This document shows positions 2,333 through 34,367 of a stretch of DNA of 35,356 nt, in pieces. Each line of letters opens with the position of its first letter. Positions within the stretch are counted from its first letter, which is position 1. The DNA comes from a virus. Lineage: Duplodnaviria > Caudoviricetes. Below the pieces are notes generated by a model. It was not told the origin of the DNA. It ran no database searches and was given only the letters and a program-made list of their open reading frames with translations. The position numbers and the translations under genes are program-made. The DNA is taken from positions 1-35,356 of IMG/VR virus record IMGVR_UViG_3300031965_001336. The stretch is one strand, 5' to 3'.

Positions 2333-2404
2333 CGGGCCTGGGAGGAGTCGAACCTCCGTGCGAGACCGGTTTTGGAGACCGGGCAGTCGCCGAGACTCAG
2401 GCCC
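2333..2404 (-). tRNA. trnW: tRNA-Trp(CCA)-like with reduced D-arm, no encoded CCA end
   Basis: Acceptor GGGCCTG/CAGGCCC plus G discriminator; anticodon arm CCGGT-CTCCAAA-ACCGG; T-arm GGAGG-TTCGACT-CCTCC; D-arm AGTC-TCGGC-GACT. Confidence 0.85.
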
Positions 2405-3635: not shown

Positions 3636-3651
3636 TAACTCATCACCTCCT

Positions 3652-5154: not shown

Positions 5155-5178
5155 CGTGGTTATGAAGCGTTGCGACCT

Positions 5179-5742
5179 TTACTTCAGTCCTAAAGCGATC
5201 TTGAGCTTCAGGATCAGTGACCGGAGAGTGTCGAGGAGCGAGATGAGCTTCTGGATCTCCGCCTGCTTCGCGGCTTGAGCTTCTTCTTTCCGCGGAGGGT
5301 CGAGGAGCCGCTCGCCCCAGTCGTCGTGGAGCAGCGAGCCGGCACAAGTTTTCCAGGGCGTGAAGTGCCGGTGGTGGTAGACCATCGTCGTCAGATTCGG
5401 GTATCGGTCGAGCCACTTCTTCAGCCGCGCCTTTAGCGTTTCAATCTGCGCCGCGGTCGGGAACTCGATGTCGAAGTCCCCGGCGAGGCAGACGGCGAGC
5501 GATTGCACGTTCATCGACTTCCCGTCGGTGAGCTGGTTGCAATGCGCGCCTTCCTCGAAGTCTTCCCGATACTTGAACTCCGTCCCGTCCGCTTCGATGA
5601 AGATGTGATAGCCGCCGTAGTAGCCGAGCGTGCTCTTCGGAAAGGCGAGGGATTTGTGGTAGGCGTTCACGGCCCAGAACTGCGGGCCGGTTTTCAGCGG
5701 AGCGTCGGTGCAGTGGATCAGGACGTACTTCGGGTCGTTCAT
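5179..5742 (-). CDS. Endolysin, N-acetylmuramoyl-L-alanine amidase (Amidase_2 / T7-lysozyme-like)
   Basis: IHCT, GYH, GAHC, VCLAGDF and HH...KTC Zn-amidase motifs; amphipathic C-terminal helix. Confidence 0.92.
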   Translation of the reverse strand: MNDPKYVLIHCTDAPLKTGPQFWAVNAYHKSLAFPKSTLGYYGGYHIFIEADGTEFKYREDFEEGAHCNQLTDGKSMNVQSLAVCLAGDFDIEFPTAAQIETLKARLKKWLDRYPNLTTMVYHHRHFTPWKTCAGSLLHDDWGERLLDPPRKEEAQAAKQAEIQKLISLLDTLRSLILKLKIALGLK

Positions 5743-5789: not shown

Positions 5790-5978
5790 TTACCACCGAA
5801 ATTTGTCCTTGATGAAGGACCACAAGAACGAGGCGACCACCGCGACGCCGGCCGCCCAGCCGTAGACCCAGTCAAGGCGCGACTTGATCGTCTTCACGTC
5901 CTGTCTGAGCTCCTTCAGCTCACTCAAGACCATCTCCCAAGCCTTCCCTTTGTAGAACTCTTCGTTTTCGGGCATCAC
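5790..5978 (-). CDS. Small coiled-coil plus C-terminal TM protein, holin-like
   Basis: 62 aa, coiled coil then hydrophobic helix; upstream of the endolysin; overlaps the upstream stop. Confidence 0.6.
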   Translation of the reverse strand: MMPENEEFYKGKAWEMVLSELKELRQDVKTIKSRLDWVYGWAAGVAVVASFLWSFIKDKFRW

Positions 5979-6622
5979 AGGCCGGTCGGGTTGAATGCGG
6001 CCCTTTGTTTTCTCTTCGGCGCTCCACCGAGCGGCAGCGCTTCAGGGGTCGAGACGTAGCCTGCGGGAGCGCCTCCTGGCCGTCGCGCGAGCGACGCGAG
6101 AAGCGCGCTCTGCGGGACCAGCGCTCCGAGGTTCTGTCCTGGGTCGTTCCGTTGAACCCCAAGCGGCGGCTGCGGGGTCGGAACGGGCGCGGACCCTGCG
6201 CCTGGAGCAACCGGTGCCATAGGAGAAACTGCGGGAGGCGTCGGAACGACCGCGCGACTTGTCCGCGTCTGCGAGGGAAGGAGACTCGAGAGCGCCGCAG
6301 GCGACACGGCCGTCGCGCTCTGCGGCGGCGTCTGCGGGGGGATCGGTGTTTGCGGCACGTAGCCGGCCGGGAAGTCTTGAAGCCGTTCCGCACCCGTGAT
6401 GTTCCCGAGAAGATTCCCGATGAACTCCTGCGGTCGCCTGAGCACGTCCGCGAATGACTGCTTCGGATTGCCGAAGAGCGTCGCGGCGGTCGTCGCCGCG
6501 GCCCGGAGCTGCGGAGGAAGGAACTTACTCGCCACGGCGAAGATCCCGGCCGACTTTGCGGTCCGGCCGAGGTCCTGAAGGGCCTGCGGGCTGACGAGAC
6601 TCCGATTTTCTGATTGCGGCAT
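5975..6622 (-). CDS. Pro/Ala-rich protein, putative internal virion (ejection) protein
   Basis: 215-aa low-complexity ORF at the end of the virion module. Confidence 0.5.
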   Translation of the reverse strand: MPQSENRSLVSPQALQDLGRTAKSAGIFAVASKFLPPQLRAAATTAATLFGNPKQSFADVLRRPQEFIGNLLGNITGAERLQDFPAGYVPQTPIPPQTPPQSATAVSPAALSSLLPSQTRTSRAVVPTPPAVSPMAPVAPGAGSAPVPTPQPPLGVQRNDPGQNLGALVPQSALLASLARRPGGAPAGYVSTPEALPLGGAPKRKQRAAFNPTGL

Positions 6623-6646
6623 TTCTTTGGTGAATTGGTTTCGACC

Positions 6647-8056
6647 TTACTGATTGGCCTCCGAGAGCGATCCGGTGAGGACCGCCTTTCGGGTTGGATA
6701 GCGGAGGGGGCTTGCGACGTTCAGGACTGCTTGGAGGTACGGATTTTGTCCGCCGATCCGGAGGGAAGGCAGGTTGCCTTTCGAGGTCTTGTAGAGGATC
6801 TGCGCGAGCGCTGATTTCACGCCGGGATGGTCCATCACGGTCGCGAGCAGCACCTTCGGGTTCGCCGCGAGCGCGATCGTGCTCTTGAGTCCGAGCACGT
6901 CGCGGTTCCCGGTTCTCCGCACCGCGTCCTCTAGCGCGTCTTCAAGCGCGATGAGCCGGGTGTCACGCGCGTTCAGTTCGCCGATTTCGGGCACTTGCCG
7001 GGCGATCTCTTCCTTGATGCCGCGGGCGAGCGCCTTCTCCGTTTCGATGCCCGCGGTCCGTTCCTGTCCGTACTTGCCGCGCAGCTCTCGATACGTGCCG
7101 CTCTTGAGCTTTTGCGCCTCATCCACGGGAATGCGGGTAGGAACGCGCGCGTCCGGATTCGTCTTGCTCGGACGGGAATGCTGCGGATGAGTGAGGAAGT
7201 CCTGGATCTTCCGGTCGATCGCAGAGAGATCCTCTTGGGGGCTCACCTGTTCACTGAATCGTTCCTTGAGTCCCTTCGTGCGCTTCACGACCGTTCGCGG
7301 GTCAACGAGCACGCCCCGGTCCTTCGCGCCGCCGATGCTCTCGGTGATCCGCGTGTTCACGTCCTCGATCCGCCCCTGGACTTTCTCAAGACCCCTCGGG
7401 CTTACTGTCACGCCCTCCTCAAGCCCCGCGCGCACGACATCCACTTTCGGGTGGGCTTTCTGAACCGACTTGCTCGGCTTGAGCGAGCTCCCGAAGAGCC
7501 GGACGGCCGTGTTCTCGACCCTTGGAGCGACCAGAGCGGATTTCGCAGCAGTCGCCGCGACGTTGCGGGGTAGGAGAAGCGGATCTGTCACTCCGGACAC
7601 TTTCGTTGCGATCTCTCCGCCCCTGCCGAGCGAGCCCACCTTCGATACCGTTCCGGCGCCCTTCAAGAGAGCGCCCGCACCGCCGGCAACCGTCGAGAGG
7701 TCCGCGAGAAACCCGACCGGGTCTTGGTAAAGCGTCTTGCCGACGTTCTCAAGTCCGCCGTAGCGCTCCTTGAAGTGTTCGCCGAGCGTGTCCGCGTACT
7801 TCTCGTGCTCTTGCTCTCCGGGAACGAGCTTCTCCAGCGCGCCGAGACCGAGCGATCCGAGACCCTTCACTGTTTGGACCGGGTTGGTCACCGTGTCGAA
7901 GATGCTCTTGAGGAAATTGCCGCCGCTTGACGCAACGTTTCCAAAAAACCCGCCGACACTGCGCGGTTCCGAGGCATCGGCTGCCGCGGATTGCAGTCTC
8001 GCGGCCGTCCGGCCCGTTCCTGCTCCTCCCTGTAGGCGTTGTAGAGTGCGTCCCAT
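6647..8056 (-). CDS. Putative ejection / DNA-transfer protein
   Basis: 469 aa with Gly/Ala-rich N-half and helical C-half; podovirus position after tail genes; TAATG coupling. Confidence 0.6.
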   Translation of the reverse strand: MGRTLQRLQGGAGTGRTAARLQSAAADASEPRSVGGFFGNVASSGGNFLKSIFDTVTNPVQTVKGLGSLGLGALEKLVPGEQEHEKYADTLGEHFKERYGGLENVGKTLYQDPVGFLADLSTVAGGAGALLKGAGTVSKVGSLGRGGEIATKVSGVTDPLLLPRNVAATAAKSALVAPRVENTAVRLFGSSLKPSKSVQKAHPKVDVVRAGLEEGVTVSPRGLEKVQGRIEDVNTRITESIGGAKDRGVLVDPRTVVKRTKGLKERFSEQVSPQEDLSAIDRKIQDFLTHPQHSRPSKTNPDARVPTRIPVDEAQKLKSGTYRELRGKYGQERTAGIETEKALARGIKEEIARQVPEIGELNARDTRLIALEDALEDAVRRTGNRDVLGLKSTIALAANPKVLLATVMDHPGVKSALAQILYKTSKGNLPSLRIGGQNPYLQAVLNVASPLRYPTRKAVLTGSLSEANQ

Positions 8057-9684
8057 TAGAGTGATTCAACCATTGGTCCCGACTTCTTGTCCGGAATGAG
8101 GGTGTAGACCTTTGCCGCGATCTGGTCACGCGTGAATTCCTGGTAATCCTTCGAGAGCTCGTCGATGATTTGCTCCCGCGTCATACTCGTTGCGAGCTGC
8201 GTGATGTCGTCTTCAAGGTCGGCGTTGGGATCGGAACCGCTCGACGGCGAGTAGACGGGGAGACCGCCTGCGGTCTTGCCTGACTTGAGGTCGTCGATGC
8301 GCTGCTCGTACGTCCCGCGCGCGCTGTCATGGGCGATCGTAAGCGCATTCATTTTCGCCCCGGCCGTCGCCTGCATGTTCTTGAGGGCCTGAGAGGTCAA
8401 GAACTTCGTGTTCGAGAAGATGCGCGCCGCGTTGAATCCGAACGTCTCGGCCCAGCTCTGCGCGTACTTCTGCACCGTCGCATACTCGCCCTCGCGCACG
8501 ACTGATTCGGGGTCCATGATTTTCGCGAAGGCGTAGATCATGCCGATGTCATCCGCGGGGTTGGTGGTCTCCGGTTTGATCGACGCCATGAATTGCCAGC
8601 CGGGCAGCGCCGTCGTGTACTGCTTCACGATCGGGTCTTGCCGATAATCGTCGGAGACTCGATCGAGTGCCGACTGAAGCTGGTTTTGGTTGAGACCCGC
8701 AGCCTGAATCTTCGCCTTCCGATTCGCGTCGAGGTTCTGGTATTCGTTAAAGCTCACGGGCTCACGACCGGCCGCTCGCTCCTGCGTCGCGTAAAAGTTG
8801 TACTCGCCGACGACGCCCGCTCCGTAGTCCGGTTTGAGGAGACTCGGAAGGAGCGACAGGAGCGTCTTCTTCTCGGCCCCGCGCGATTCCGCAGCCTTCG
8901 TCACGAAGTCAAAGACGCCCTTCAACTCGTCCTCGCTCGCATCTCCCTTGAGCTTGTTCAGCGCCGAACTAAGGCCCCCGGCGAAGACATTGCCCGTCTC
9001 GGCGATCTCCTTGTCGCCCACGCCGCCGCCCAGCAACCCGCGGACCCCAAGGTTCCCCCTGACTTCCTCGAGCGCCTTGTCCCGCGCCTTTTCGTAGAGC
9101 TTCGTCGTCTCGGCGCTCTGCGGGGCGACTCTCGATTCCGGCGTGCCGAAGACGGATTGATACGCGCTCCGCGCCTTCGCCGCCTCGGTCCCGTAGTCGA
9201 ACGGCTGGTTTGCTTCTTGAAGCGACTTCTGGAGCAACGCCTGGAGCGTCACGGCTGTCTGATCCTGCGGCGGCTGCGCGGCTGGCGGCTGCGCGGCCGG
9301 CGCCTGCGTCCCCGGAGGCACGGCGAACACATTCGGGTTCACGGTCGTCGATGCAGACGGAGGAGACGCGAATGGAGACGCCGCGGGTTTCTGCACCGAC
9401 GGCCTCGCTGGTCTTGACGCGGAAGGAACGGGTGTCCACGGCACCTTCCCAGTAGGAGGAACTGGCGTGTAGTTGAGGCCCGGTATCGGCGTGTAGTTCA
9501 GCGCCGAAGGTTTCGTGGACTGAAGCGGACTCGCTGCCGATGAGGGGGTTTGCGGCGCGGGCTTCGTCGGGGTGCTTGTCGGTGCGGGAAGACCCGGAAA
9601 GAAATTTTTGAGACTCGAACTCAATCCCGAGAGCGCCTGGTTGAGTTGGTCGAGAAGAGGATTTTTCGTCGCGCTAACCGCCAC
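8056..9684 (-). CDS. Putative ejection protein with Pro-rich N-terminus (GTG start)
   Basis: 542 aa; LNYTP x2 and AAQPP x2 repeats; YAFAKIMDPESVVREGEY segment; position in the virion module. Confidence 0.65.
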   Translation of the reverse strand: MAVSATKNPLLDQLNQALSGLSSSLKNFFPGLPAPTSTPTKPAPQTPSSAASPLQSTKPSALNYTPIPGLNYTPVPPTGKVPWTPVPSASRPARPSVQKPAASPFASPPSASTTVNPNVFAVPPGTQAPAAQPPAAQPPQDQTAVTLQALLQKSLQEANQPFDYGTEAAKARSAYQSVFGTPESRVAPQSAETTKLYEKARDKALEEVRGNLGVRGLLGGGVGDKEIAETGNVFAGGLSSALNKLKGDASEDELKGVFDFVTKAAESRGAEKKTLLSLLPSLLKPDYGAGVVGEYNFYATQERAAGREPVSFNEYQNLDANRKAKIQAAGLNQNQLQSALDRVSDDYRQDPIVKQYTTALPGWQFMASIKPETTNPADDIGMIYAFAKIMDPESVVREGEYATVQKYAQSWAETFGFNAARIFSNTKFLTSQALKNMQATAGAKMNALTIAHDSARGTYEQRIDDLKSGKTAGGLPVYSPSSGSDPNADLEDDITQLATSMTREQIIDELSKDYQEFTRDQIAAKVYTLIPDKKSGPMVESL

Positions 9685-9710
9685 TCCTTTTGCCTTGCAT
9701 TTTCATCGAA

Positions 9711-9738
9711 AGTATAACAAACGTCCGTCAAATGGAAA
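9711..9738 (-). promoter_or_regulatory. Putative promoter for the ejection and lysis genes
   Basis: Extended -10 TGTTATACT; weak -35 TTTCCA at 16-bp spacing. Confidence 0.45.
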
Positions 9739-11059
9739 CGGGGACGGCGACCAACGTCCCGCCGATCGTGTAGCACACGTACATGAACGAATTGAAGTGC
9801 AGCACTCCCTTCACGGTTTCCTCGATCGCCTGCTCGGAGGCGATCACGATCGAGGCGTCCCGCACGAACTTGACAATTTTCTTATTGCTCGAATCCGAGG
9901 CGTAGTGAAACTTCTTGTCGTAGGTGGCCATCAGATCCGGCAAGGCACCTGACCAGGCGACCGTATCGACAAGGGCGTAGGTCGAAGGGTCGTAGCGGAT
10001 AAGCCGGTTCCCGCTGTAGCCGCCTGGGATGGCCGCGTAAATCTTGAACGCCGCATCGGCCATCGCCACGTCGCTGAAAACGCCATCGGGGTACTTGTTC
10101 GCGGTGTGGCCAAACCAGTTTTCAGTCGCCGTCCCGCCGGAGTGTGAGAGTTCGAGACGATACGTCGTGTTCGCGGAGACCGCCACGGTCAATCCGCTCA
10201 CGGTCCTCCAAGTCTTATTCTCGTCAATACTGAAGTTCCCGCTCGCGAGCGTCGTGCCGCCGTCCGACGACTTGATCGCCCAGTTGATCGTCGCCGTCGC
10301 ACCTGCGTTCGCCTTCATGAGGACCGCGAACGCGGTGATCGCGGTCACGTTCGCCCCGGTCTTGAAGGTCTGATGTTGCGTCCCTCCCGAGTTGATGTCG
10401 AACTGCGTGTTATCGAGCGACTGCTGCGAATCAATCCCGTTCCCCGACGCTCCGACGCTCAACCCCACGAGGTTCGCGCCGTCGAAGGCGATCCCCTTCG
10501 TGAGCGCGAGCTCGTGGAACGGCGCGCGGACGCGGGACTGGAATGCGAGGCCGAAGTCCCAGATCGCGAGATATCGGTTTCCGGCGTCTGTCTCGTACGA
10601 ACCAACGACACGATCGTTCGTGACGGCCACGCCGAAGATGTTCGCGATCGCCTCACTTCCCGCGAGCCCGAAACTCGCGTTCAGGAGAAACGCATCCTGA
10701 TACGGCGACAAGAGGTCGAGCGTGTTGAATCTCCGAAGCGCGTAGTTCGTCCCGTCCCAGGTGATGACGTAGATATAGTCGTTCAGCGACTTGTCGTAGC
10801 CGGTGGCGACCTGCTTCACGTCCGCGGCTGTGACGTTCAGGTTCATCGCGACGAGGAGCGCGTCCGTCCCGAGCTTGTCCCTCGTGATGGCCCGCGGCAT
10901 GACGTTCCCCGAACGAGAGATGACCTCCGCCCCGCCCCGGATGTCCTTCAACGTCACGGGGTCCTCGAAGAGCGCTGGCGCGTCCTTGTTCCGGAGGAAC
11001 TTGTCGCGCCCGAGCGTCTCCCACTGGATTACCTGTCCGTCACGAATGATCGCCATCAC
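9728..11059 (-). CDS. Tail or receptor-binding-type virion protein
   Basis: 443 aa, beta-rich with an inserted Thr/Ser/Gly-rich domain; overlaps the nozzle stop. Confidence 0.6.
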   Translation of the reverse strand: MMAIIRDGQVIQWETLGRDKFLRNKDAPALFEDPVTLKDIRGGAEVISRSGNVMPRAITRDKLGTDALLVAMNLNVTAADVKQVATGYDKSLNDYIYVITWDGTNYALRRFNTLDLLSPYQDAFLLNASFGLAGSEAIANIFGVAVTNDRVVGSYETDAGNRYLAIWDFGLAFQSRVRAPFHELALTKGIAFDGANLVGLSVGASGNGIDSQQSLDNTQFDINSGGTQHQTFKTGANVTAITAFAVLMKANAGATATINWAIKSSDGGTTLASGNFSIDENKTWRTVSGLTVAVSANTTYRLELSHSGGTATENWFGHTANKYPDGVFSDVAMADAAFKIYAAIPGGYSGNRLIRYDPSTYALVDTVAWSGALPDLMATYDKKFHYASDSSNKKIVKFVRDASIVIASEQAIEETVKGVLHFNSFMYVCYTIGGTLVAVPVSI

Positions 11060-12477
11060 GCCGCTTTCTGTTTCTTCGTGAGCTCGCCGCCCTTTGCGTC
11101 GGCCAGATAGATGCTTGCCTTGTAGATCTCGCGCATCTCCTTTCCGGAGACCTCGTGGAACCGGAGCGCGAGGTCGCGGCCTCGCGCCCTCAACGAGAAT
11201 TCCGTGATGGTGCGGTCGATTTGGCCGAGCTCTTTGTACTTGCCTCCGTCCACCGAGTAGTGAACCGTCGCCGGGCTCTTCGGCAGGTTCGAGCTTCTGA
11301 CGATGACCTTCGCCACCGTGCTCTCCACGAGCGGATCTCCCAGCTCGATCAGGCCCGTTTCGTGCTCCATCTCGATCGGAGTCGTGTCGTATTTGTAGCC
11401 GTCGGCCCAGAGGAAGGTCTTGCCCGATGTCGAGCCGAGGTAGAGCTTCAGAAGGTTGTCCGTCCCGATGAAATCAGAGACGGCCTTGATCGCGTGCGCG
11501 AGCGGCTTGATCGTCCACGTGTCCTGAAGAGTGTCGTAGACCAGCGTACAGTTCGAGTGAACTCTGCCCGCGACCGTCACGTCGCCGATGAACAGGCAAT
11601 ACTTGTTCCCGTCCTTGAACGCGACCACTGCATACGGGTCGGTGATGGCGTCGATGAAGTCCTGGATCTTGAGCGAGATGAGTTCCGGGTAGCGCGAGGC
11701 GAACTGGTAGATGCCCTTGCGGTTGAAGAAGTAGACGATGCCCCCGATGTTCACGATCGAGCGCTTGCTCGTCGTGCCTACGTCGAGCGTGGTGTAGCGA
11801 ACGGTCAGCGGGTTGTTTTTCTGGTCCACCTGGTATTCCCAAATGGAGAACTCCTTGAAGATCATCAAGCTGTCGAAGAGCGGGACGAGCGCCATGTTCC
11901 GGTCGCCGTCGTTATTGTTCACGTCGAAGTTATTGAATGCCGGCCAGTTCTCCGGATCTCCGACCGCGCTGAAGTAGACCGTCGAGTAATTCGGCGAGAC
12001 GCCCGTGACGTACACCCGGTCCTTGTAGAGCGCGCCGATCGTGCCGTTCGGCGGGCTCCCGCCGATGTTCCCGAACGTCGTCCCGTCCCATTTCTTCGGG
12101 GTGTCGGTGCCGTTCCACCGAAGCGCGAGGTTCTTGTACGTGACCCAGATCGGGGCGACGGTCGTGGAGAGACCGGTCGCGCCGGTGATCGCGTCCCAGG
12201 TTCCGCCTCCGATGTTGGCCTGGTACACCTTCCCGCCGCTGTCGCGGAGGAGATAGCGCGTCGTCGTCGCGCCGATCTTGTAGAACGGATAAAGCGAGAG
12301 GACCGTATCGACGGTGGGCTGATCGAGGAAGGGGGAGTAGCCCTTGTCCTTCTTGAGCGTGCCGATCTCGTCGAGGTTGACGTTTTTCGAGATCCTCCCT
12401 TCTTCGAGCTTGTTGAGGATCGGCGAGACCCGGCGGTTCATCCCGCCGTGGAAGGAAACGATGTCTATGGGGATCAG
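11056..12477 (-). CDS. Tail nozzle / tail tubular protein B (P22 gp10-like); probable CTG start
   Basis: Beta-propeller-like sequence (YFSAVGDPENW, LMIFKEFSIW, VYFFNRKGIY); frame is open upstream of ATG 12441 giving IPIDIVSFHGGMN, which resembles the usual N-terminal F.GG.N motif. Confidence 0.75.
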   Translation of the reverse strand: MIPIDIVSFHGGMNRRVSPILNKLEEGRISKNVNLDEIGTLKKDKGYSPFLDQPTVDTVLSLYPFYKIGATTTRYLLRDSGGKVYQANIGGGTWDAITGATGLSTTVAPIWVTYKNLALRWNGTDTPKKWDGTTFGNIGGSPPNGTIGALYKDRVYVTGVSPNYSTVYFSAVGDPENWPAFNNFDVNNNDGDRNMALVPLFDSLMIFKEFSIWEYQVDQKNNPLTVRYTTLDVGTTSKRSIVNIGGIVYFFNRKGIYQFASRYPELISLKIQDFIDAITDPYAVVAFKDGNKYCLFIGDVTVAGRVHSNCTLVYDTLQDTWTIKPLAHAIKAVSDFIGTDNLLKLYLGSTSGKTFLWADGYKYDTTPIEMEHETGLIELGDPLVESTVAKVIVRSSNLPKSPATVHYSVDGGKYKELGQIDRTITEFSLRARGRDLALRFHEVSGKEMREIYKASIYLADAKGGELTKKQKAA

Positions 12478-12492
12478 GTCATGTGGCCCTGC

Positions 12493-13671
12493 TTACACTC
12501 CCGGCGGGTTGAAACCGTCGTAGAGCTCGTCCTCGATCGAGGCCCCGAACATCGGGACCGTGCGCGGGATCTCGGGGTAGCGGTTTTTGATTTCGAGCAG
12601 CATCTCCTCCACGTCGTTCTCGAAGAGCGTCCCGTAGTAGTTCGCCACGTCGAACTTGTTGTCGCTCTCGAACGCGCGCTTGAGCGCCCAGTTCACCATC
12701 GTTTGCTCATACCCGTAGGGCAGATCCGGCACGTCGTCATCGTTCGCGAGCCGCGCCGCGAGTGCCGCGAAGCGAGGTCGCATCCCTCCGGATGTCGCGG
12801 TGGGCTTCGGGAGCGGGACGATCTTGTTGCCTTCGTAGTAATACTTCGGGCTTGACTGGCTGTAGACCGCCTGCGGGTGGTCGAAGGTCGAATCGATCGG
12901 GTCCGCCGGGTAGTAGTCCACGCCGTTGTAGCTGAAATCCCAGCGGGTCGGCCGCACGAAGTTGCTGGGCAGGCTGTACGCGCGCTGGCTCGCCACGAAC
13001 GCGATCGCGGCTCCGCTCCCGTCCGTGCCGTACTTGCCGTAGTAGTCGATCCCGAGGCTGATGATCCTCCGCACCATCTTCGTGATGTAGCCCTCGTTCA
13101 GCCACTTGATCACCTCCTTCCGGTCGAGAATCTTGCTCGACTGCTTGCTGAAGAGCTTGTATACGGAGTCCACGAGACCGGCGAGGGTCGTGTCGCCATA
13201 CCCCGTCGCCGGGACCTCCGCCGAGTAGCCGGAGAACGAGGAATCGATCGAGTTCTTGTAGCGGATTTTGTAAAAGTCGGTCGCGTTTCCCGCGGAGTCC
13301 TTGTACGTTGTCGCATCCTCCTCGACGGTGATAGCGACCGTCGTGAGGACGGAGTAGCTCCCACCTTGCGAGGCCGCGCGCGATATTTCGATCTGGTCGT
13401 AGTCGAGGACGGTGACGGGGGTGTCGGTCGAGTGGTCGAATTTGAGGCCCGCAGCAAGCGTGATCAGCGTGTCGGTGGGCACCGTGCTCGCGTGCGTCTT
13501 CACGATCTCCGCGTCTTCAGAGCCGTACGTGCCGATGAGGAGCAGCGTATTCACCGCGATCCCCTTCGTGTTGATCACGTTGAGCGTCGTCGCTGCCGCG
13601 TTCGCCTGCTGGGTAAGCGAGGTGTCTTGGGACTGCTCGATATCGGGATGCCGCCACGAGGTGATGATCAT
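12493..13671 (-). CDS. Head-tail adaptor (tail tubular protein A-like) with extra N-terminal beta domain
   Basis: C-half has KWLNEG, YSLPSNF and DDVPDLPYGYEQTMVNWAL adaptor-type motifs; directly upstream of the nozzle. Confidence 0.7.
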   Translation of the reverse strand: MIITSWRHPDIEQSQDTSLTQQANAAATTLNVINTKGIAVNTLLLIGTYGSEDAEIVKTHASTVPTDTLITLAAGLKFDHSTDTPVTVLDYDQIEISRAASQGGSYSVLTTVAITVEEDATTYKDSAGNATDFYKIRYKNSIDSSFSGYSAEVPATGYGDTTLAGLVDSVYKLFSKQSSKILDRKEVIKWLNEGYITKMVRRIISLGIDYYGKYGTDGSGAAIAFVASQRAYSLPSNFVRPTRWDFSYNGVDYYPADPIDSTFDHPQAVYSQSSPKYYYEGNKIVPLPKPTATSGGMRPRFAALAARLANDDDVPDLPYGYEQTMVNWALKRAFESDNKFDVANYYGTLFENDVEEMLLEIKNRYPEIPRTVPMFGASIEDELYDGFNPPGV

Positions 13672-14711
13672 GTGTTCGCTTTGTCTTGTTTCGCACCTCC
13701 CCCTGGTGTGACGGCGACCGCCCGGCCGTGGGCCTTCACTTCAAACGCTTTCACTACGGCGTTCCTGATCTTCAGCGCGAGCTGGTCCGCTTCGCCGAGG
13801 ATCGAGACGATCACGAAACTCCTCTGAAGTTCGGCCGCGATCATCTGATCTATGCGCGTGAGAACGCTCGCGATGGCCATGCTTGTCCCGGTCTCGCTAC
13901 GAATCGCCGCGTCGGTCTCCGCGAGCTGCGACACGATCGTCGCCGCCACGTCCTCGACGAAGGTCTGCGCCATCGAAATGAGCCAGGCCTTCCGAACGGT
14001 GGACACGCTCGCCAGATACTTCGGGTCGGCCGTAACGGTAATGCCGGTAGGCGTCCCGCCGAACATCCGGGCCGCGTTTCGTTTCCATATCTCCTTCGTC
14101 GGCATGTTCCGCACGACCGAAGCGTCGTTCCGCATCGGCGCGAGGAAGATGAGCCCCCGTTCGGTCCCGTTCATCCGGCGGAACATCCCCGCCCTGATCT
14201 CCGCCGGGCTTCTTTGGTAGTTCCAGATGCGGCACTCCGTCAGCTCTCCATCGAAGAAGTCGCCGCCATACGCCTTGCCGAACTTCAACGGCTCCGAGCT
14301 GTTTTCAGAAGCCCCGGCTCCCGTATCACTTTGGGTCTTCGCGAGCTCGAACCCGTCGCGGTAAAAGAAGATGGAGGCGGAGGTCAAGTCGAGGCCCGTC
14401 TGCACGATCGCCCAGTGATGCCACGCACCGTCATCCACGTTCCCGACGTTGGTCCGCACGTAGATTCGCTTGCCTCCAACGTTGTTCTCCCCAATTCGCC
14501 ACGCCAAGTCGCCAGCAGAGAAGCAGTCGGCGGTAAAGATGTCGTAGCCAGGAAACAGACCGGAACCCAGTTGCTTCGAGCAGACGTACTTGCACCCCGT
14601 CGTCGCGTTGATCTTCGCCCAGAACTCGACCGTGACCGCGTCGAGCTGCGCCAGGTCGAATACGTCACCGAAATCGATGAAGGAAGTGGAGCCGTTGAAC
14701 TTGAGGGCCAT
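13668..14711 (-). CDS. LamG / concanavalin A-like domain virion protein
   Basis: ALKFNG, TVEFWAK, DGAWHHWAIV and FDGELTECRIWN motifs. Confidence 0.88.
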   Translation of the reverse strand: MALKFNGSTSFIDFGDVFDLAQLDAVTVEFWAKINATTGCKYVCSKQLGSGLFPGYDIFTADCFSAGDLAWRIGENNVGGKRIYVRTNVGNVDDGAWHHWAIVQTGLDLTSASIFFYRDGFELAKTQSDTGAGASENSSEPLKFGKAYGGDFFDGELTECRIWNYQRSPAEIRAGMFRRMNGTERGLIFLAPMRNDASVVRNMPTKEIWKRNAARMFGGTPTGITVTADPKYLASVSTVRKAWLISMAQTFVEDVAATIVSQLAETDAAIRSETGTSMAIASVLTRIDQMIAAELQRSFVIVSILGEADQLALKIRNAVVKAFEVKAHGRAVAVTPGGGAKQDKANT

Positions 14712-15149
14712 CTACGCCGTCTCGAACCTCATCCCTGCGTAATTCTTCGCGTGGTTGCCTTCGGTGCCGTCGAGGGTTGTGCCGGTCGCGTTCTTGACCG
14801 CAACTTTCCAGTGGCTCGGCAGGGTCCCGACCTTTGACGTGTCGATGCTGAAGATGTAGGTCGTGGCGTTCGCGTTCGCGACGAAAGAGCCGAGCGGTTC
14901 CGAGTTCAGCGCCGAAGAGTCGTCGTAAGTCGTGCCTCCGTCACTTGAGCGGATCAGATACACCTCGATCCGGCCGGTCGCGCCCACGCCGCTCGCCCCC
15001 GTCTTGATCTTGAGCTGGATGATCGCCGAGATGAACTTGTTTACGGAGTTGTCGATCGCGCTCGAGGTCGCGAACGTCGCGTCCGCAAGCGATGCCAGCG
15101 TGATCGTGATCGCGTTGTTGTTGTTGAAAAGCTGCTGGATCGTCGCCAT
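14712..15149 (-). CDS. Virion structural protein (beta-sandwich-like)
   Basis: 145 aa, Thr/Ala/Ser-rich; translationally coupled on both sides. Confidence 0.6.
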   Translation of the reverse strand: MATIQQLFNNNNAITITLASLADATFATSSAIDNSVNKFISAIIQLKIKTGASGVGATGRIEVYLIRSSDGGTTYDDSSALNSEPLGSFVANANATTYIFSIDTSKVGTLPSHWKVAVKNATGTTLDGTEGNHAKNYAGMRFETA

Positions 15150-15152
15150 CTC

Positions 15153-15722
15153 CTATTGAAGCTTGACTTTTATCGACGCCTGGAGCTGGTCGCTTGCCTG
15201 AAGCACGCGGCTCACGCTCAAAGCCACGGTAGCGATGAGTTTGCCGCTGGTCCCCGAGGCTACGTCCGTCAGGAAAAGGTAATCGGCCGCCGACCACGCA
15301 GTCCCGCCGCTGTTCTGAAAAGTCTTCTGCGCCGAAGTGACCTGGTAATCGCCGGTGTCGAGCGCGAGGGTCGGCCAGTCCGTCGTGTTCCGCGCGAGCG
15401 CGATCCGCGCATAGCCGGTTCCCGCGACTTCCGTGATGCCCGTGAGAATCACCGTCTCGGCCGGGACTCCCGGAGTGCCCCCGTTGTTTCCGAGGCCCAC
15501 GTAGAAACTCGTCGGCGTATTCTGATTCCTAAAGTACGAGTCAAGGATGTTCTGCTCGCCCTCGTCCATGAGGCCGTTCAGCATGGCCTCGACATCCTTC
15601 GCTTCCCAGATGACCTTCCCGTTTCTGATGTGGCGAACGTCGGCCGTCACCCGAATCCACGGGTGCCGCTTTCCTCGAAGCGCCCGCAACGCGAGCTGGA
15701 TGCGCCGAATGAAGTCACTCAT
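15153..15722 (-). CDS. Minor tail / virion structural protein
   Basis: EVAGTGYARIAL and TFQNSGGTAW...GKLIA pattern seen in phage minor tail proteins; ATG 15722 overlaps the upstream stop. Confidence 0.65.
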   Translation of the reverse strand: MSDFIRRIQLALRALRGKRHPWIRVTADVRHIRNGKVIWEAKDVEAMLNGLMDEGEQNILDSYFRNQNTPTSFYVGLGNNGGTPGVPAETVILTGITEVAGTGYARIALARNTTDWPTLALDTGDYQVTSAQKTFQNSGGTAWSAADYLFLTDVASGTSGKLIATVALSVSRVLQASDQLQASIKVKLQ

Positions 15723-15939
15723 CGGAGTCGTTCTCTTTGGCGAGTCGCCCCTTTTCTTCAAGCCGCCTGATGATCTCGGCTGTAGCTTCATCCGGTTCGG
15801 CGAACGCTTTCTTCAGCCTCTCCGCTGTCGCTTCGGACTTCTTGCACAGAATCTTCACCTTGCGTTCCTTTGCCAGCGCAAGGTGTCGCTCCTCGATCTC
15901 GCAGAGCTCACCCCGCGAATTGATCGCGTAGTAAGTCAT
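15715..15939 (-). CDS. Hypothetical phage protein
   Basis: 74 aa, overlaps both neighbours. Confidence 0.6.
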   Translation of the reverse strand: MTYYAINSRGELCEIEERHLALAKERKVKILCKKSEATAERLKKAFAEPDEATAEIIRRLEEKGRLAKENDSDE

Positions 15940-16178
15940 GACGGCCCGAACACCTTCTTTCCCCGACCGTGAATCTCGAAGGCCTCCCGCGCGAGCCCCG
16001 AGTTCCTGTCTTGGCTCTGACGGACGGCTTCGCGGTGGTTCCGCTCCGACACCGCGTTATTCTTCTTGACGATGGTTTCGGCTAACGCGCCGATGACCGC
16101 GGGCTTTCCCTTCCCATCCTTCTTCTGGATGTGTTCGAGGTGCCGTATGTCGTTGTTGAACTTCTTGATCTGGTCCAT
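15936..16178 (-). CDS. Hypothetical phage protein
   Basis: 80 aa, ATGA overlap with the downstream gene. Confidence 0.6.
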   Translation of the reverse strand: MDQIKKFNNDIRHLEHIQKKDGKGKPAVIGALAETIVKKNNAVSERNHREAVRQSQDRNSGLAREAFEIHGRGKKVFGPS

Positions 16179-16191
16179 TCCGTTTCCGAGG

Positions 16192-16221
16192 GGTGGCCCG
16201 GCGTCTCACGCGCCGGACCAC
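16192..16221 (-). other. GC-rich hairpin after the capsid and decoration genes (mRNA stabiliser or attenuator)
   Basis: Minus strand GTGGTCCGGCG-CGTGAGA-CGCCGGGCCAC; no U-tract. Confidence 0.5.
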
Positions 16222-16237
16222 TGACTCGGGAACCGAA

Positions 16238-16717
16238 CTAGCCCGGAAGGTATTCGATGCCCGGAAGGTACGGGTACGGCGTGTTGAAGTAGGTCACCGT
16301 CAAGCTTGCGGTATCGAGCGCGGTGGTCGCTCCGGTGAAGGTGGAACCGGTGCCGTTCTCGATGATGATGAAGCCAATCAGGACCTCGCCGTCCGGGATC
16401 TCCGGCAGCGTGCAGGCCGCGAGTGTAGCCACGTCATAGCCGCCGTTCCGCCTTGTGAGCGTGCCGTCGGCCTTGACTGTGAACGCGACGCAACCCTTCT
16501 TGGTGTCCGCGATCGTGCCCGAGAGAGCCGCCATGTCTGCGGCGGCCTTCGTGGCCGGAGCGCCGTCCACGATGAAGTGGATCGCATTCGCCGATTTCAC
16601 GAGCGCCGAAGTAGCAGCCTTAATCGCGAGTCCGCCTGAGTTGAAGACGAAGCTCGAGAGCGCGCGTTGCACCTTGCTGAACGAGTTCGGGTAGCGCGGA
16701 TCTAATGTTCTAGCCAT
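16238..16717 (-). CDS. Putative capsid decoration / cement protein
   Basis: 159 aa, Ala/Thr/Gly-rich, immediately downstream of the major capsid gene. Confidence 0.6.
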   Translation of the reverse strand: MARTLDPRYPNSFSKVQRALSSFVFNSGGLAIKAATSALVKSANAIHFIVDGAPATKAAADMAALSGTIADTKKGCVAFTVKADGTLTRRNGGYDVATLAACTLPEIPDGEVLIGFIIIENGTGSTFTGATTALDTASLTVTYFNTPYPYLPGIEYLPG

Positions 16718-16747
16718 GTGTGTGTGATGTTTTGTTTTCGACTAGAC

Positions 16748-17956
16748 CTAGACCGTGAAGGTGCCGTTCGTGAGGGCGAAGTTGCCGCGAGCCCGGCGCA
16801 AGCCGAGGTTCACGTACTCCTTCAGGAAGCCCTCCCAAATCGCCTTCCCGCTAAGCCGCAAGATCGTTCCCGACCCGTCGTACTCAAGCCACTTGAGAGG
16901 CGAGAGTTGCGCCAACGTGAACGCCTTGAAGTCAACGCCGTAGATCGTGCCGTCGGGCACGTCGTATTCGAGCACCGCGGCGACCTTCCGGCCGGCTGCG
17001 GCGAATTCGAGACCGCTGAACCCTCCCGTCAGCTCGACGGAGTTCACGATCCGCTGGAGCGATTGCGCGTCAGCCACGAGCCGGTTGTAGGGCGAGATGT
17101 TCATGAACATCGCCGACACCTTCCCGTACTCGTCCGACTGCATCAGCATCTTCTGGAGTTTTTGCTCCAGTTCGCGGGCCGCGTCGTAGGTGGTCGCACT
17201 CGCGAAGACGTTCGGCTTCCACCACGGGTTGGTCGAACGATTCACGGTTTGAAACGTGTTGGTCGTAAGACCGATCGCGGCCAGGAGACCGTCCGGCTCG
17301 ACGCCGGTCGTCCCGTCGGGGCCGACGATGTAGACGCTGTCGGCGTTCGCCCACGTGCGGGCCGCGGCGAGCGTGACTCCCGTGTCGGAGTCAACCGATG
17401 AGATCTCAACTGCGGAGCCCGACCCGATCTTCAGGAACATTCCTGGCGCGAAATACTTCGTGCCGGCAATGTCCGCATTCGGCGTTGAGCTGTTGACCAC
17501 GAGTGCGGTGGAGTTCGTCCCCCCGCCGTTCGCGGTCGTGATGAGGCCGTTTGTCGCGCCGTTCTGCAGGAACATCCGGTTCATCTGCTTCGCGTGCGCG
17601 GTCCTCATCTGTTCCTCGTTCAACGTCATGAGGTTGGCGAGCGCCTGCTCGCTCGATCGTGCCGTTTCGAGGTCCGCGTCAGCCACGGAGAACCCCGTGA
17701 AGAGGTATTTCGGGCTGATTTCGAGGCGGCCGGTTGCGGCGTAACCGGTCGGGAGCGTATCCGTCTTGCCAACCGCAGCGGTGCCGGAGTGCATCGACTT
17801 CACGACAGTGATCAAAAACTTGTCGTTAATCTTTTCAACTCCGACGTTCTTCTTGAGGTTGGCGAGAAGCGGCGTCTCCTTTGCGTACTGGTCCTCGATG
17901 TTCGGGGCCAGGATTTGCTTCAGATAATTCTGAATCTGCGCTACTGGAATGAGCAC
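16748..17956 (-). CDS. Major capsid protein (GTG start)
   Basis: 402 aa after the scaffold gene; HK97-like pattern (ETPLLANL, MNRMFLQNG, EPDGLLAAI, EYDVPDGTIY) with a beta insertion. Confidence 0.85.
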   Translation of the reverse strand: MLIPVAQIQNYLKQILAPNIEDQYAKETPLLANLKKNVGVEKINDKFLITVVKSMHSGTAAVGKTDTLPTGYAATGRLEISPKYLFTGFSVADADLETARSSEQALANLMTLNEEQMRTAHAKQMNRMFLQNGATNGLITTANGGGTNSTALVVNSSTPNADIAGTKYFAPGMFLKIGSGSAVEISSVDSDTGVTLAAARTWANADSVYIVGPDGTTGVEPDGLLAAIGLTTNTFQTVNRSTNPWWKPNVFASATTYDAARELEQKLQKMLMQSDEYGKVSAMFMNISPYNRLVADAQSLQRIVNSVELTGGFSGLEFAAAGRKVAAVLEYDVPDGTIYGVDFKAFTLAQLSPLKWLEYDGSGTILRLSGKAIWEGFLKEYVNLGLRRARGNFALTNGTFTV

Positions 17957-17971
17957 TAATGAGGCCTTGCT

Positions 17972-18745
17972 TTATTCCTCCGATGAGTTGTTTTTGAAGA
18001 ATTCCACTGCTTGTGCAGTGCGCTCTTCTTCCGTCTCGGCCTTCTTGCGAGTGCCCGGTGTCGTCTGGACTTGCGAACCGCGTTCCGTCTTCAAGACCTT
18101 CGCCTTGATTTCAGGGAACTTGTCGTAGAAACCCGCGTGCACTTTCCGGTACGTCTGTTCGAGGTCCACGAGGTATTCGCCCTCGCTCTCGCCCTGGACA
18201 TACACGGTGAGTGACGGGTCCTTTTCGACTGCGGCGCGGATCTCGTCGAGCTTGAACGGAGGTTCGCCGTGCTTGCCGGCGTACTTCTCCGTGAGGGTCT
18301 TCACCGCGGAGTCGAGCTGTGCGCTCGCGGTCCGCGACTGGTAGCCCTCCTGGAACTCGTTCAACTGCTTCTGGAACGCTTCCAGTTGCGGCTTCGTGAC
18401 GAAGCCGAGCTCCTGAAGAATACGAACCGCTTCCTGTGCCTGCGGATTGCCCGCGAACGCATCGGTGACGGTTTTCTCCGGCTTCTTCAGATTGCCTTGC
18501 TCGTCGATGATCCCGTCCTTGACCAGCTTCGCAATGAGCTGAGACTTCTTCGTGAATTCAGGCTGGAACGATTTGTAATCGTTCGCCGACTTCATGAATT
18601 CGCGAAATTGATCGACAGAGTATTTCTGCCCGTCGAGCTCGTACTCTGTGGGCGCCGCCGGTGGGGTTGTGGTTTGCTGGCCTCCGCCAGTTCCGCCGCC
18701 ATCGCCTCCGCCTCCTGGAGTCGTAGTTTTTGTTGGATCGTCCAT
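17972..18745 (-). CDS. Capsid scaffolding protein
   Basis: Disordered N-terminus, YELDGQKYSVDQ...EFTKKSQLIA motif and coiled coil; between portal and capsid; likely start MDDPT at 18745. Confidence 0.8.
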   Translation of the reverse strand: MDDPTKTTTPGGGGDGGGTGGGQQTTTPPAAPTEYELDGQKYSVDQFREFMKSANDYKSFQPEFTKKSQLIAKLVKDGIIDEQGNLKKPEKTVTDAFAGNPQAQEAVRILQELGFVTKPQLEAFQKQLNEFQEGYQSRTASAQLDSAVKTLTEKYAGKHGEPPFKLDEIRAAVEKDPSLTVYVQGESEGEYLVDLEQTYRKVHAGFYDKFPEIKAKVLKTERGSQVQTTPGTRKKAETEEERTAQAVEFFKNNSSEE

Positions 18746-18950
18746 GTGAATGAACGGACTCTGTTCTTTTCCGCCGACCTTTCCACTGTCCTTGCGGCCT
18801 GGTGGTTGCCTTGCTGTGCGGAAGAGTCCTGGAGTTTCGGGAGATCTCTCTCCCACGGCTGGCCCCGGCGGGGAGGATTACGCCGGCAAGGCTTGTCGGA
18901 TCACCCTCACCGGGACGGAGCCATGCGTGGAAGAACGATGGCGGGATCTG
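18746..18950 (-). ncRNA. Long structured 5' leader of the scaffold-capsid transcript
   Basis: About 200 nt between a predicted promoter and ATG 18745; minus-strand GCCTTGC (18886-18892) can pair with GCAAGGC (18808-18814); CCGAC/GTCGG, CCGCC/GGCGG and GTTCTT/AAGAAC pairings are possible. Confidence 0.45.
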
Positions 18951-18955
18951 CCTTT

Positions 18956-18993
18956 AGAGTAACAGTCGGGTGGTGTTTGTAAACTGTGGATAA
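18956..18993 (-). promoter_or_regulatory. Promoter with adjacent perfect DnaA box
   Basis: TTATCCACA-G-TTTACA-16 bp-TACTCT with extended TG. Confidence 0.6.
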
Positions 18994-18998
18994 GTAGT

Positions 18999-20717
18999 TC
19001 AGGCTGCCGCCGCGGGTGGCTGCGCTGGCGCCTGTTCGACCTTGATGCCCAGCGTCTTCAGAATCTCAAGACGGAGCTCTGGCGGGAGCGCGGCGAATTC
19101 GGGCGTCTCGACGATGGAAACCCCGTGCGCCTTCTCCTCCTGGAGCTTCTCGAGGATCTCGTTCACGTTCGAGAATTTGAACCCCTTCAGGACTTCCTCT
19201 TTCGGCAGGTAGCCCTTGTCGCCGAGCTGGAGCAGGGTGTCCCGCTTGCCCTCCGCCGTGTAGGCGAGGCCGCTTTCGATCTCCACCTTCACCCCGTACT
19301 TCGAGGAGATCGGGATCGCGTCGCTCTGCGGATTCTCCGCGGCCATCGACACGCCGGAGACGAGCTTGAGCGACTGGCGCGTGCCCTCCCTGCCGATGTA
19401 GTTCACGTCCACCGGCTCCTTGAAGTACCGGTCGCCGCATTCGAGAATCTTCTGCGCGATCTCGCTCAGCGTGTCGGAGAGCCGGTCGATCGAAGTCTGC
19501 TGATTCTGGAACTCGGCGTTCTGGAGACTTTCAAGCGCGCGATACGCCTTCACGCCTGGAGGAATCTTGCCGAAACTGATGACCGAAGTCCCGATCTCGT
19601 CCATAAAACCCTTGAGTATCTCGACCATATCGGTCGCGACGGTCGGTGTCGGACCGGGCTGCATCCATGTGGGTGGATTCGGCCCTTCGTACTCGATCAT
19701 CTCGCCGTTCTCATTCAGCACCCGCTCAACCTTCGAGAGCTTGGGCTTGAGGAGCCGCGCGACTCCGACGGTCCGCGCGTAGCCTTCGATCATCGCGGCG
19801 ATGATGTCGATCCCGCGATTTAACGGAATCAGGTCGTCGAACGGCGATGGCTGATACAGCGGACCCTCCTGCGGCGTGTATGCCACGAAAGGAATCTCCG
19901 TCAGCTCAGTTTTGTCCTCCCGGAGAATCTCCCCCTCACACTCCGTGATGAGGTCAAACGTGTCCCCCGACTTAACCCAAATCTCATTTAAGAATTGCCG
20001 CGCGACTCTCGGATCGGTGATCGCAGTTGTATGGCCGCGACCCTGTTCCCGGAGCTTGATGTTCTTCCAGTCCGAGAGCGCAAGCCGATCGGACGGCTTG
20101 AGACGAGCCGTCACTTCGGGGTCGTAGAGCGGTTCCCCCTCGGCATCCTTTACGTTCTTGATGTATTCGAGTGTTCGCGAGACTCCTTTCCTGAGCCACG
20201 ACGACTCGCGGAGTTCACCGATCCCCATTTCATGCCAGATGTCATACGGCTCGTATGTGTCTAAAAAGATATTTCCGTCAGCGTCGCCGCCAATCTCCGC
20301 GTAGCCGACGTTGTAGCGGAACCCGTGCGAGACGAGCTTCCTGATCTGCCGCCTCAACCCGAGGAAGTACCAAAGGGCATCCATCCATTCCGAGACGCCG
20401 CGGGCGTTCTCGTCGAACTTCTCAGTCAGCGCCGCGTCCATCCCTGGCTGCGGATAGATCACCCAGCGCGGATCGCGCGACACGACCAGGTTCACGAGAC
20501 TCTTGATCTGCTTTTTCGCGCGGGGGATGGGCCGGACCTGGATGCCCTTCGGGAACTTGATCGGTTCGAGCTGGCCGAGCTGGTTGACCTGCTTTACGAA
20601 GTGGTTGTTCTCCCAGAAGTTGTCCGAGAGATACCACCGCATGTCGAACTTCTGGCGCGACTGGCGGCCGTACTCGATGATGTCCTTCGCTAACTTTTTG
20701 TTGGCGGTGTCAGCCAG
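18999..20717 (-). CDS. Portal protein; probable CTG start at 20717
   Basis: About 570 aa between TerL and scaffold; IPFVAY...FDDLIPLNRGID portal-type segment; frame is open 25 codons upstream of ATG 20642 to a CTG that follows a TGA. Confidence 0.85.
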   Translation of the reverse strand: MADTANKKLAKDIIEYGRQSRQKFDMRWYLSDNFWENNHFVKQVNQLGQLEPIKFPKGIQVRPIPRAKKQIKSLVNLVVSRDPRWVIYPQPGMDAALTEKFDENARGVSEWMDALWYFLGLRRQIRKLVSHGFRYNVGYAEIGGDADGNIFLDTYEPYDIWHEMGIGELRESSWLRKGVSRTLEYIKNVKDAEGEPLYDPEVTARLKPSDRLALSDWKNIKLREQGRGHTTAITDPRVARQFLNEIWVKSGDTFDLITECEGEILREDKTELTEIPFVAYTPQEGPLYQPSPFDDLIPLNRGIDIIAAMIEGYARTVGVARLLKPKLSKVERVLNENGEMIEYEGPNPPTWMQPGPTPTVATDMVEILKGFMDEIGTSVISFGKIPPGVKAYRALESLQNAEFQNQQTSIDRLSDTLSEIAQKILECGDRYFKEPVDVNYIGREGTRQSLKLVSGVSMAAENPQSDAIPISSKYGVKVEIESGLAYTAEGKRDTLLQLGDKGYLPKEEVLKGFKFSNVNEILEKLQEEKAHGVSIVETPEFAALPPELRLEILKTLGIKVEQAPAQPPAAAA

Positions 20718-20731
20718 TCATGTGCCTTGCT

Positions 20732-21254: not shown

Positions 21255-21305
21255 GTTAATTACTTCACGTTTGCTTTACCCCGACCTTTTCAACCATTGC
21301 CTCTT

Positions 21306-34361: not shown

Positions 34362-34367
34362 GCGAGT

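Follow-up and report, generated by a model that had tools for sequence, protein, structure and literature searches.

A hexanucleotide, CA(A/G)GGC (CARGGC), preceded the putative non-AUG start codons of four virion genes in an uncultured phage, and its complement, GCCUUG, stood at the tip of a predicted hairpin RNA encoded between the portal and scaffold genes of the same phage. The DNA analyzed, hereafter the window, was the 35,356-nt IMG/VR record IMGVR_UViG_3300031965_001336 (positions 1-35,356; Duplodnaviria, Caudoviricetes). Sequence comparison indicated that CARGGC is a real, conserved and private signal of initiation position. We put the probability at about 0.5 that the hairpin RNA pairs with CARGGC as a surrogate anti-Shine-Dalgarno (anti-SD) sequence and thereby licenses the late non-AUG starts.

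Motif and start codons in the window

The initial annotation of this DNA had described GCA(A/G)GGC at Shine-Dalgarno (SD) distance before four non-AUG virion gene starts. All four copies were confirmed at their coordinates on the minus strand, where the virion genes and the RNA element described below also lie. Spacers of 6, 7, 8 and 7 nt separated them from a CTG at 20715-20717 (portal), a GTG at 17954-17956 (major capsid), a CTG at 12475-12477 (nozzle) and a GTG at 9682-9684 (ejection), and three of the four copies began 0-1 nt past the upstream TAA. The conserved signal stood, but the true motif was shorter than the 7-mer first proposed. The hexamer cores were CAAGGC at 20724-20729, 17964-17969 and 9692-9697, and CAGGGC at 12486-12491. 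The leading G (at 20730 ahead of the portal gene) was window-specific, being present at 4 of 4 window sites versus 5 of 18 sites in the relatives. Among the differences listed for a relative about 89% identical to the window, none fell between 17938 and 17995, the region of the capsid motif.

The position of the motif, rather than its count, stands out. Over the whole window the count was ordinary, with 16 matches on both strands versus 11.5 ± 2.9 expected, and 10 of 100 shuffles reached 16. CARGGC occurred 30 times on the coding strand (35,356 nt), and the chance of finding it within a 5-position spacing window was ~0.004 per gene.

The virion labels of that annotation were backed to different degrees. 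The portal gene (18999-20717) matched phrog_156 and PF16510, both weakly, and the major capsid gene (16748-17956) matched phrog_14242 and scored above the cut-off of NF033394, so these two labels have profile support. The virion protein at 11056-12477 is likely the nozzle, as judged from a generic virion-protein match (phrog_3287) and its place behind an SU10-type adaptor (PF24175); its alignment gave no match among solved structures. The gene at 8056-9684 matched phrog_13634, of unknown function, and is called likely ejection protein 1 from its position alone. We inferred each non-AUG start codon as the one behind the motif, while the start region was fixed independently by stops, first ATGs and N-terminal alignment. 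The first in-frame ATG came at codon 26, 55, 13 and 366 of the four genes, an in-frame TGA stood directly ahead of the portal CTG, and the residues N-terminal to the first ATG aligned with AUG-starting orthologues.

Conservation in related phages

Three relatives, L001, L018 and L019, whose capsids are 62-67% identical to that of the window, carried the motif, and together with the window they form a set of four phages, all uncultured. The ten available orthologous starts in these relatives served as a held-out test. All ten carried CARGGC 6-10 nt upstream and all were non-AUG, as the initial annotation would predict for homologous starts. The portal, capsid, nozzle and ejection genes began with ATA, GTG, CTG and GTG in L001 and with GTG, GTG, CTG and GTG in L018, and the portal and capsid genes of L019 both began with GTG. 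Viewed by gene, the capsid start was GUG in 4/4 phages and the nozzle start CUG in 3/3, and the portal start varied (CUG, AUA, GUG, GUG). Three more non-AUG starts carried the motif, those of the third ejection gene of L001 and L018 and of one L019 gene, which brought the total to 17. The spacing was 6-10 nt at all 17; since it varies, it is SD-like, and a fixed splice or frameshift is ruled out. An in-frame stop lay directly ahead of the inferred start codon in 4 of 15 cases. In 14 of the 15 the first in-frame ATG came between codons 13 and 399; the L019 portal, with an ATG at codon 8, was ambiguous. Six of 19 close nozzle homologues were annotated from a downstream Met.

None of the nine AUG-starting orthologues in the motif-free comparison phages L020, L021, L048 and L166 carried the motif, although these phages are more distant and AT-rich (GC 0.32-0.38) and therefore a weaker control.

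It is barely credible that the motif is incidental and the starts mis-called, with an AUG start reached via readthrough, frameshift or short upstream open reading frames (uORFs). The unenriched whole-window count would fit such an explanation, as would the out-of-frame ATGs just before the window portal and nozzle and the L019 portal, and the in-frame ATG at codon 8 of the latter. However, the motif was present at 10/10 held-out starts. The upstream ATGs would need a +1 shift in one gene and a -1 shift in another, and they are missing in L001 and L018. The adaptor and nozzle genes share a reading frame in two phages, whereas in L018 they do not. Programmed frameshift, readthrough, uORF reinitiation and splicing were likewise rejected as a general rule, because frames and spacings disagreed among genes and phages.

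Two features of the starts may be recorded here. Out-of-frame ATGs opening open reading frames (ORFs) of 2-7 codons occurred at three of the four window non-AUG starts (20718-20721, 12480-12482 and 9699-9701, minus strand) and at the L019 portal (1380); they are missing in L001 and L018 and are possible decoys. In L001, the capsid gene (start at 9992) and the second ejection gene open with 12 identical bases, a GTG and then codons for Pro-Lys-Ile, and at both an in-frame stop comes immediately before.

The portal-scaffold RNA element

A conserved non-coding element of ~200 nt (18746-18955) was present in all four motif-bearing phages and would double as the 5' leader of the scaffold-capsid operon. 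Its most prominent part was a long predicted hairpin with internal loops (18844-18939; model match 18846-18938). GCCUUG, the complement of CARGGC and our candidate guide, was located at the hairpin tip (18887-18892) and was invariant in 4/4 phages. An internal CAAGGC (18808-18813), a candidate pseudoknot or parking site, lay 79 nt behind the loop, and an internal CARGGC was found 74-79 nt behind it in all four phages. This was followed by a second predicted hairpin (18783-18805), composed of a stem, a CAGG/ACA internal loop, a short stem and a GCAA loop. The element ended with AAGGUCG (18775-18781), which is complementary to the helix-26 loop UCGACC of the likely host 16S ribosomal RNA (rRNA) and lay ~25-30 nt behind the internal CAAGGC. 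AAGGUCG was placed 29 nt ahead of the ATG of the likely scaffold gene (17972-18745), a label given from position and conservation alone, with no profile match. A guide RNA had been one of the readers suggested in the initial annotation, and the predicted hairpin provides a concrete candidate for it.

Each copy of the element folded into a ~95-nt hairpin, with z values of -2.2, -2.0, -3.5 and -2.0. Between the window, L001 and L018, 15 pairs were changed on both sides; none of 500 shuffles reached 15 and slid controls gave at most 3, though the sample is small at three sequences, and these same three had served to derive the structure. The stems differed among the four phages while the tip GCCTTG stayed invariant. 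Exposure of the loop was complete in L001 and L018, where it has 8 nt, and half in the window and in L019. When an RNA model was built from the three copies and run with filters off, the element of the held-out L019 came out on top (16.4 bits, E 0.038), and L020, L021 and L166 gave no match. The same model matched none of 150 genomes, in a search run without a positive control, and the covariance models of Rfam 15 gave no match over the element in the window or L001 with E up to 5. In contigs of a groundwater relative, 12 of 245 letters of the element differed from the window, as did 105 of 963 letters across the scaffold gene and the capsid start.

A putative sigma70-type promoter (TTTACA, 16 nt, TACTCT; 18956-18983) was recognized by eye ahead of the element. 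It was below the scanner threshold in the window, and the scanner called the equivalent site in L018 (10/12) and in the motif-free L021 (12/12), where only a short leader occupied the equivalent place. A putative -10 box, TATACT (9711-9716), seen by eye in four phages, would give the ejection-position gene a very short leader containing little besides the motif.

Several side features of the element were noted. The 3' strand of the long hairpin had a second partner, downstream and of similar strength, in the window, L001 and L018 (window 18818-18826, 18848-18856 and 18925-18934, minus strand), which suggests a two-state switch. The internal CAAGGC and the GNRA-capped hairpin (18783-18813, minus strand) resemble the linker and helix 45 of the host 16S in size and order, which may be chance. 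The CAGG/ACA internal loop also resembles the domain IV loop of the signal recognition particle RNA, and this too may be chance. A DnaA-box-like TTATCCACA occurred at 18985-18993 and 31405-31413 (both minus strand), the first directly upstream of the putative late promoter, and similar boxes preceded L001 promoters.

Pairing between the loop and the motif

At the 22 start-proximal sites, position 3 was the sole variable core position (A 17 times, G 5 times). It lies opposite a loop U, so that G-U pairing tolerates the variation. The predicted duplexes between loop and site ranged from -9.8 to -15.1 kcal/mol. In 4/4 phages, pairing of the internal site with the loop of the same element was lengthened to 7 bp by a flanking pair that differed between the window, L001/L018 and L019. 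The three start sites of L019 also extended with their own loop (3/3), and with none of the other three loops (0/3 each). The flank and G-U evidence for pairing is suggestive, short of proof, as the core never changes.

All of the pairing evidence would fit equally well if the same loop paired with CARGGC to repress or delay, as a multi-target antisense RNA tuning portal, capsid, nozzle and ejection levels. For cuckoo and RNAIII-type RNAs, the available text of PMC4615179 proposes that anti-ribosome-binding-site motifs displayed in loops keep the ribosome from binding. We regard repression as unlikely. Apart from the motif, nothing visible at the targets would act as a positive signal (GGUCG missing at 15/15; anti-SD pairing weaker than -6.5 kcal/mol at 15/15), and their starts are weak. 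The capsid, the most abundant product, shares its transcript with the RNA. Moreover, a repressor would not need the 6-10 nt spacing kept at 17/17 sites.

A phage or host protein could also read CARGGC and promote initiation, with the loop pairing only with the internal site or titrating the protein. The internal CARGGC, conserved in 4/4 elements, is consistent with this, and the CAGG/ACA internal loop of the second hairpin resembles a protein site. However, profile scans singled out none of the genes of the window as a candidate, the A/G variation fits G-U pairing, and the L019 start sites match the flank of their own loop. Such a protein reader seems quite unlikely. We also rejected the idea that an inhibitory fold in the target mRNAs is opened, as the structures were inconsistent and motif accessibility ranged from 0.19 to 0.73 over 15 sites.

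The likely host and its 16S rRNA

The window carries a tRNA-Trp and genes for integrase, recombination, terminase, portal, capsid, endolysin and an SU10-type adaptor, and by this gene content the phage is temperate and podovirus-like. An 81-kb metagenome contig contained identical DNA, implying that the phage is probably a prophage. Its host is likely a member of the Paceibacteria (Parcubacteria; Patescibacteria). This assignment draws on three observations. Among species-representative genomes, the sole match to the phage was a Parcubacteria metagenome-assembled genome (MAG), with a capsid 53% identical. The leader motif AAGGTCG was common to the phage and the Paceibacteria class. In a search with the SSB protein within the phylum, the four best matches came from the class sample (top match, genome G033, 60% identity), which is a weak basis for a host.

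Searches for further members of the phage family added little. When viral contigs were scanned with patterns, 23 and 11 loci came up, and the only relatives among them were the two contigs already known. Alignment scans brought in AUG-type phages only, and a single portal query matched none. The nozzle profile had one match in 401 Paceibacteria genomes, the MAG already known, and capsid matches among GenBank phages were of 22-23% only.

We searched 301 Paceibacteria genomes and found the helix-44/45 anchor of 16S rRNA in 142 of them (143 matches). The anti-SD CACCTCCT was kept in 64 of 143 16S ends and changed or lost in 79, as counted by eye. This agrees with the available text of PMC9297842, in which the anti-SD was detected in 48% of Parcubacteria.

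The initial annotation had suggested that a divergent 16S 3' end of the host might read the motif, and this suggestion found no support in the genomes sampled, the true host lying outside the sample. Only one of the 142 anchored genomes had GCCYTG within 22-50 nt of the anchor; there it lay ~18 nt past helix 45, farther out than the 16S is expected to reach. The helix-28 3' strand read GCCTTG in 0 of 14 readable loci (20 fetched). With a crude ORF caller, CARGGC was found at -18 to -4 of 0/614 host ORFs from nine genomes and of 1/325 from three genomes chosen by SSB similarity, that is, at 1/939 ORFs. A host rRNA reader, whether a divergent 3' end in an unsampled host or the helix-28 3' strand, would explain the SD-like spacing. 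It has a precedent in Flavobacteriia, where the available text of PMC7797042 describes an alternative anti-SD covarying with the SD of one gene. Given the counts above, and since it would leave the phage loop unexplained, we consider it improbable.

Between helices 44 and 45, the sequence was CAAGGC, the phage motif itself, in 133 of the 143 Paceibacteria 16S matches (by eye); in most bacteria it is CAAGGT. The loop might therefore bind this 16S CAAGGC and block the ribosome, being displaced only by mRNAs that carry CARGGC. However, a given hexamer occurs by chance in about 1 in 3 RNAs of 1.5 kb, displacement does not demand SD spacing, and these 16S bases are buried near the decoding centre. 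Such a block appears very improbable.

In many Paceibacteria 16S ends with CCTCCT, the tail could fold back on AGGGAG just downstream. Bridging via the canonical anti-SD was rejected, as the GGTGATCC stretch of the window hairpin was not kept in L001.

The AAGGUCG leader signal

Other phage genes often carried AAGGTCG ~19-36 nt ahead of the start, with sites in the window at 18775-18781, 6642-6648, 21282-21288, 31344-31350 and 5173-5179. In the likely host class, the leader motif AAGGUCG(A) was located 20-42 nt ahead of AUG, in untranslated leaders. AGGTCG ranked first of 3,699 hexamers in host leaders, with 12 occurrences observed versus 1.9 expected in 614 ORFs, and a second host set (three genomes, 325 ORFs) gave 7 versus 1.3. 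The 16S helix-26 loop was UCGACC, the complement of GGUCGA, in 16/16 anchored Paceibacteria loci (20 fetched). Helix 26 is described as highly conserved in Parcubacteria and in contact with the SD helix, with no known role there in the available text of PMC9297842, and mRNA pairing with helix 26 tethers ribosomes in the calicivirus termination upstream ribosomal binding site (TURBS; PMC3542737, available text). From these sequence matches, AAGGUCG may tether ribosomes independently of the SD in these bacteria, which are often without an anti-SD.

Upstream of the non-AUG motif starts, GGUCG was found in 0 of 15 cases. The third ejection-position gene of the window (5975-6648) had AAGGTCG at 6642-6648 and an ATG start, and its orthologues in L001 and L018 had CAAGGC, 8 nt and a GTG. 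The two signals thus swap across phages and look interchangeable, which argues for CARGGC as a positive signal.

Proposed mechanism

In the mechanism that we favor, the late promoter would fire, the portal-scaffold RNA would be made and its GCCUUG loop would be offered. The loop would pair with CARGGC 6-10 nt ahead of the start, replacing the anti-SD tail that the likely Paceibacteria host leaves unused, so that weak CUG, GUG and AUA starts could be translated once the late RNA is present. The RNA would act in cis on the capsid and nozzle genes, and in trans or via read-through transcripts on the portal and ejection genes. Least certain is the docking on the 30S subunit, for which the AAGGUCG of the RNA itself might pair with the 16S helix-26 loop. 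The internal CAAGGC would park the loop nearby until a target displaces it, and the choice of start codon would tune output.

A stronger form of this proposal is natural orthogonal translation. The RNA would dock on an anti-SD-less 30S by AAGGUCG:helix-26 pairing and supply GCCUUG, and the virion genes would be read by RNA-loaded ribosomes only and stay silent in the prophage. We hold this form as tentative, a possibility on the doubtful side.

Several points weigh against activation by the loop. The first group concerns the pairing itself. The core is identical in all four phages, so that its covariation with the motif had no informative variants. Own-loop flank extension was no better in L001 (3/7) and L018 (4/8), and the G of the window fits three loops alike. 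The internal site by itself could explain the conservation of the loop. Weak pairing inside the hairpin was predicted for the UUG half of the loop in two phages, the window (unpaired probabilities of 0.48, 0.11 and 0.06) and L019, and the full-length L019 fold paired the loop with an internal site. With default filters, the three-copy RNA model missed the held-out L019 element.

The second group concerns the motif and its setting. The signal was wider than the non-AUG late genes for which the initial annotation had proposed it; it was conserved at the orthologous non-AUG starts but also preceded five AUG-starting late genes of the relatives. The AUG-type phage L048 had one CAGGGC 7 nt ahead of an internal ATG. 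Conversely, two GTG starts had no motif, those of the window terminase (overlapping a stop) and the second ejection gene of L001 (directly behind a stop); translational coupling would suffice at both, as both adjoin an upstream stop. The scaffold AUG downstream on the same RNA would compete for the mRNA channel, and most known small RNAs repress when they base-pair at a ribosome-binding site. Finally, the motif-free control is weak for the reason given above, and the family amounts to four phages only.

Relation to known systems

The cuckoo small RNAs of Alphaproteobacteria (RSs0680/CcsR, SmelC397) and RNAIII-type RNAs with C-rich loops likewise combine an invariant loop complementary to ribosome-binding sites, compensatory stems and several mRNA targets (PMC4615179, available text). 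According to the same text, the cuckoo loop is CCUCCUCCC, directed against the canonical SD and displayed on 2-4 short hairpins, and is linked to repression. In contrast, the phage element displays GCCUUG on one ~95-nt hairpin, against a private motif before non-AUG starts. It thus differs from the family as described there, both in its loop, which is not CCUCCUCCC, and in having one long and one unlike short hairpin instead of 2-4 similar ones.

The ASD2/SD2 system of Flavobacteriia rpsU also has a non-canonical motif at the SD position, on which only a few genes rely, in a lineage that makes little use of the SD (PMC7797042, available text). Its partner there is the 16S 3' end, whereas the complement of the phage motif is phage-encoded and no sampled 16S end fits. 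As an alternative SD, the phage motif showed the right spacing (6-10 nt at 17 non-AUG starts), but within the sample neither the 16S tail (1/142) nor use by host genes (1/939 ORFs) was in keeping.

Plant-virus 3' cap-independent translation enhancers (3' CITEs; BTE, TED, kl-TSS) are likewise viral RNAs that recruit ribosomes or factors, with delivery by loop pairing to a distant site (PMC5382211, available text). They are eukaryotic, lie in the 3' untranslated region and serve one 5' target followed by scanning, as described in that source; the phage element is bacterial, lies in a leader and would serve 3-8 targets at SD spacing. The phage loop shared with them complementarity to a distant viral site, as complementarity only, and had neither the 3' location nor eIF4 binding.

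The pairing of calicivirus TURBS mRNA with the helix-26 loop, which tethers the small subunit, is a precedent for the AAGGUCG-helix 26 contact (PMC3542737, available text). In the same source, TURBS works in cis where a stop and a start overlap, pairs with 18S rRNA and has no second guide loop. AAGGUCG matched TURBS in its complementarity to the helix-26 loop (16/16) but, lying in untranslated leaders, shared neither the stop-start overlap nor the dependence on upstream translation.

In the laboratory, orthogonal ribosome-mRNA pairs have been engineered in which a private ribosome-binding site is read only by a matching anti-SD built into the 16S. The phage system likewise has a private ribosome-binding site, but its anti-SD would come on a separate viral RNA. 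In its action the phage RNA would be comparable to a 3' CITE or to an engineered orthogonal pair, and its build is somewhat reminiscent of a cuckoo RNA, but it failed the tests that define each of them.

The literature was searched at listing level, with thin coverage of subscription journals, and no description of the motif, the RNA, the mechanism or a bacterial GGUCG-helix 26 pairing was found. A term search of the available text of PMC10783764 gave no mention of the lineage of the window phage.

Other features of the phages

Restriction-modification cargo was found at the right end of the window (32548-35356, minus strand), which encodes a NaeI-type endonuclease, a cytosine methyltransferase and an HNH nuclease, and in a Vsr-like repair gene at 3192-3914. 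The tRNA-Trp(CCA) at 2332-2404 (minus strand) has an unusual D arm and lies near the integrase, so an attachment site there is possible. A GroES-like gene, below curated cut-offs, lay between the portal gene and the RNA element in L001 (8582-8842), and a similar gene was seen by eye behind the capsid gene in L019 (8121-8411). A small shared ORF (KSKAQHGFM / SEKQQHFFG) lay between the portal gene and the late promoter in L018 (8522-8690) and L021 (8839-9054) and was absent from the window.

Implications

The host leader motif complementary to helix 26 offers a direct test of start-site choice in Parcubacteria without an anti-SD, a question left open in the available text of PMC9297842. For gene annotation, the non-AUG starts would imply that gene callers shorten these virion proteins, as with the 6 of 19 nozzle homologues above. 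If the RNA represses, it would be a variant of antisense control; if it activates, it would provide a 6-nt guide that could be programmed to start translation at non-AUG codons. The part of the ribosome that selects start sites would then come from the virus, on a separate RNA, and this would explain how a temperate phage holds its capsid and portal off until late infection.

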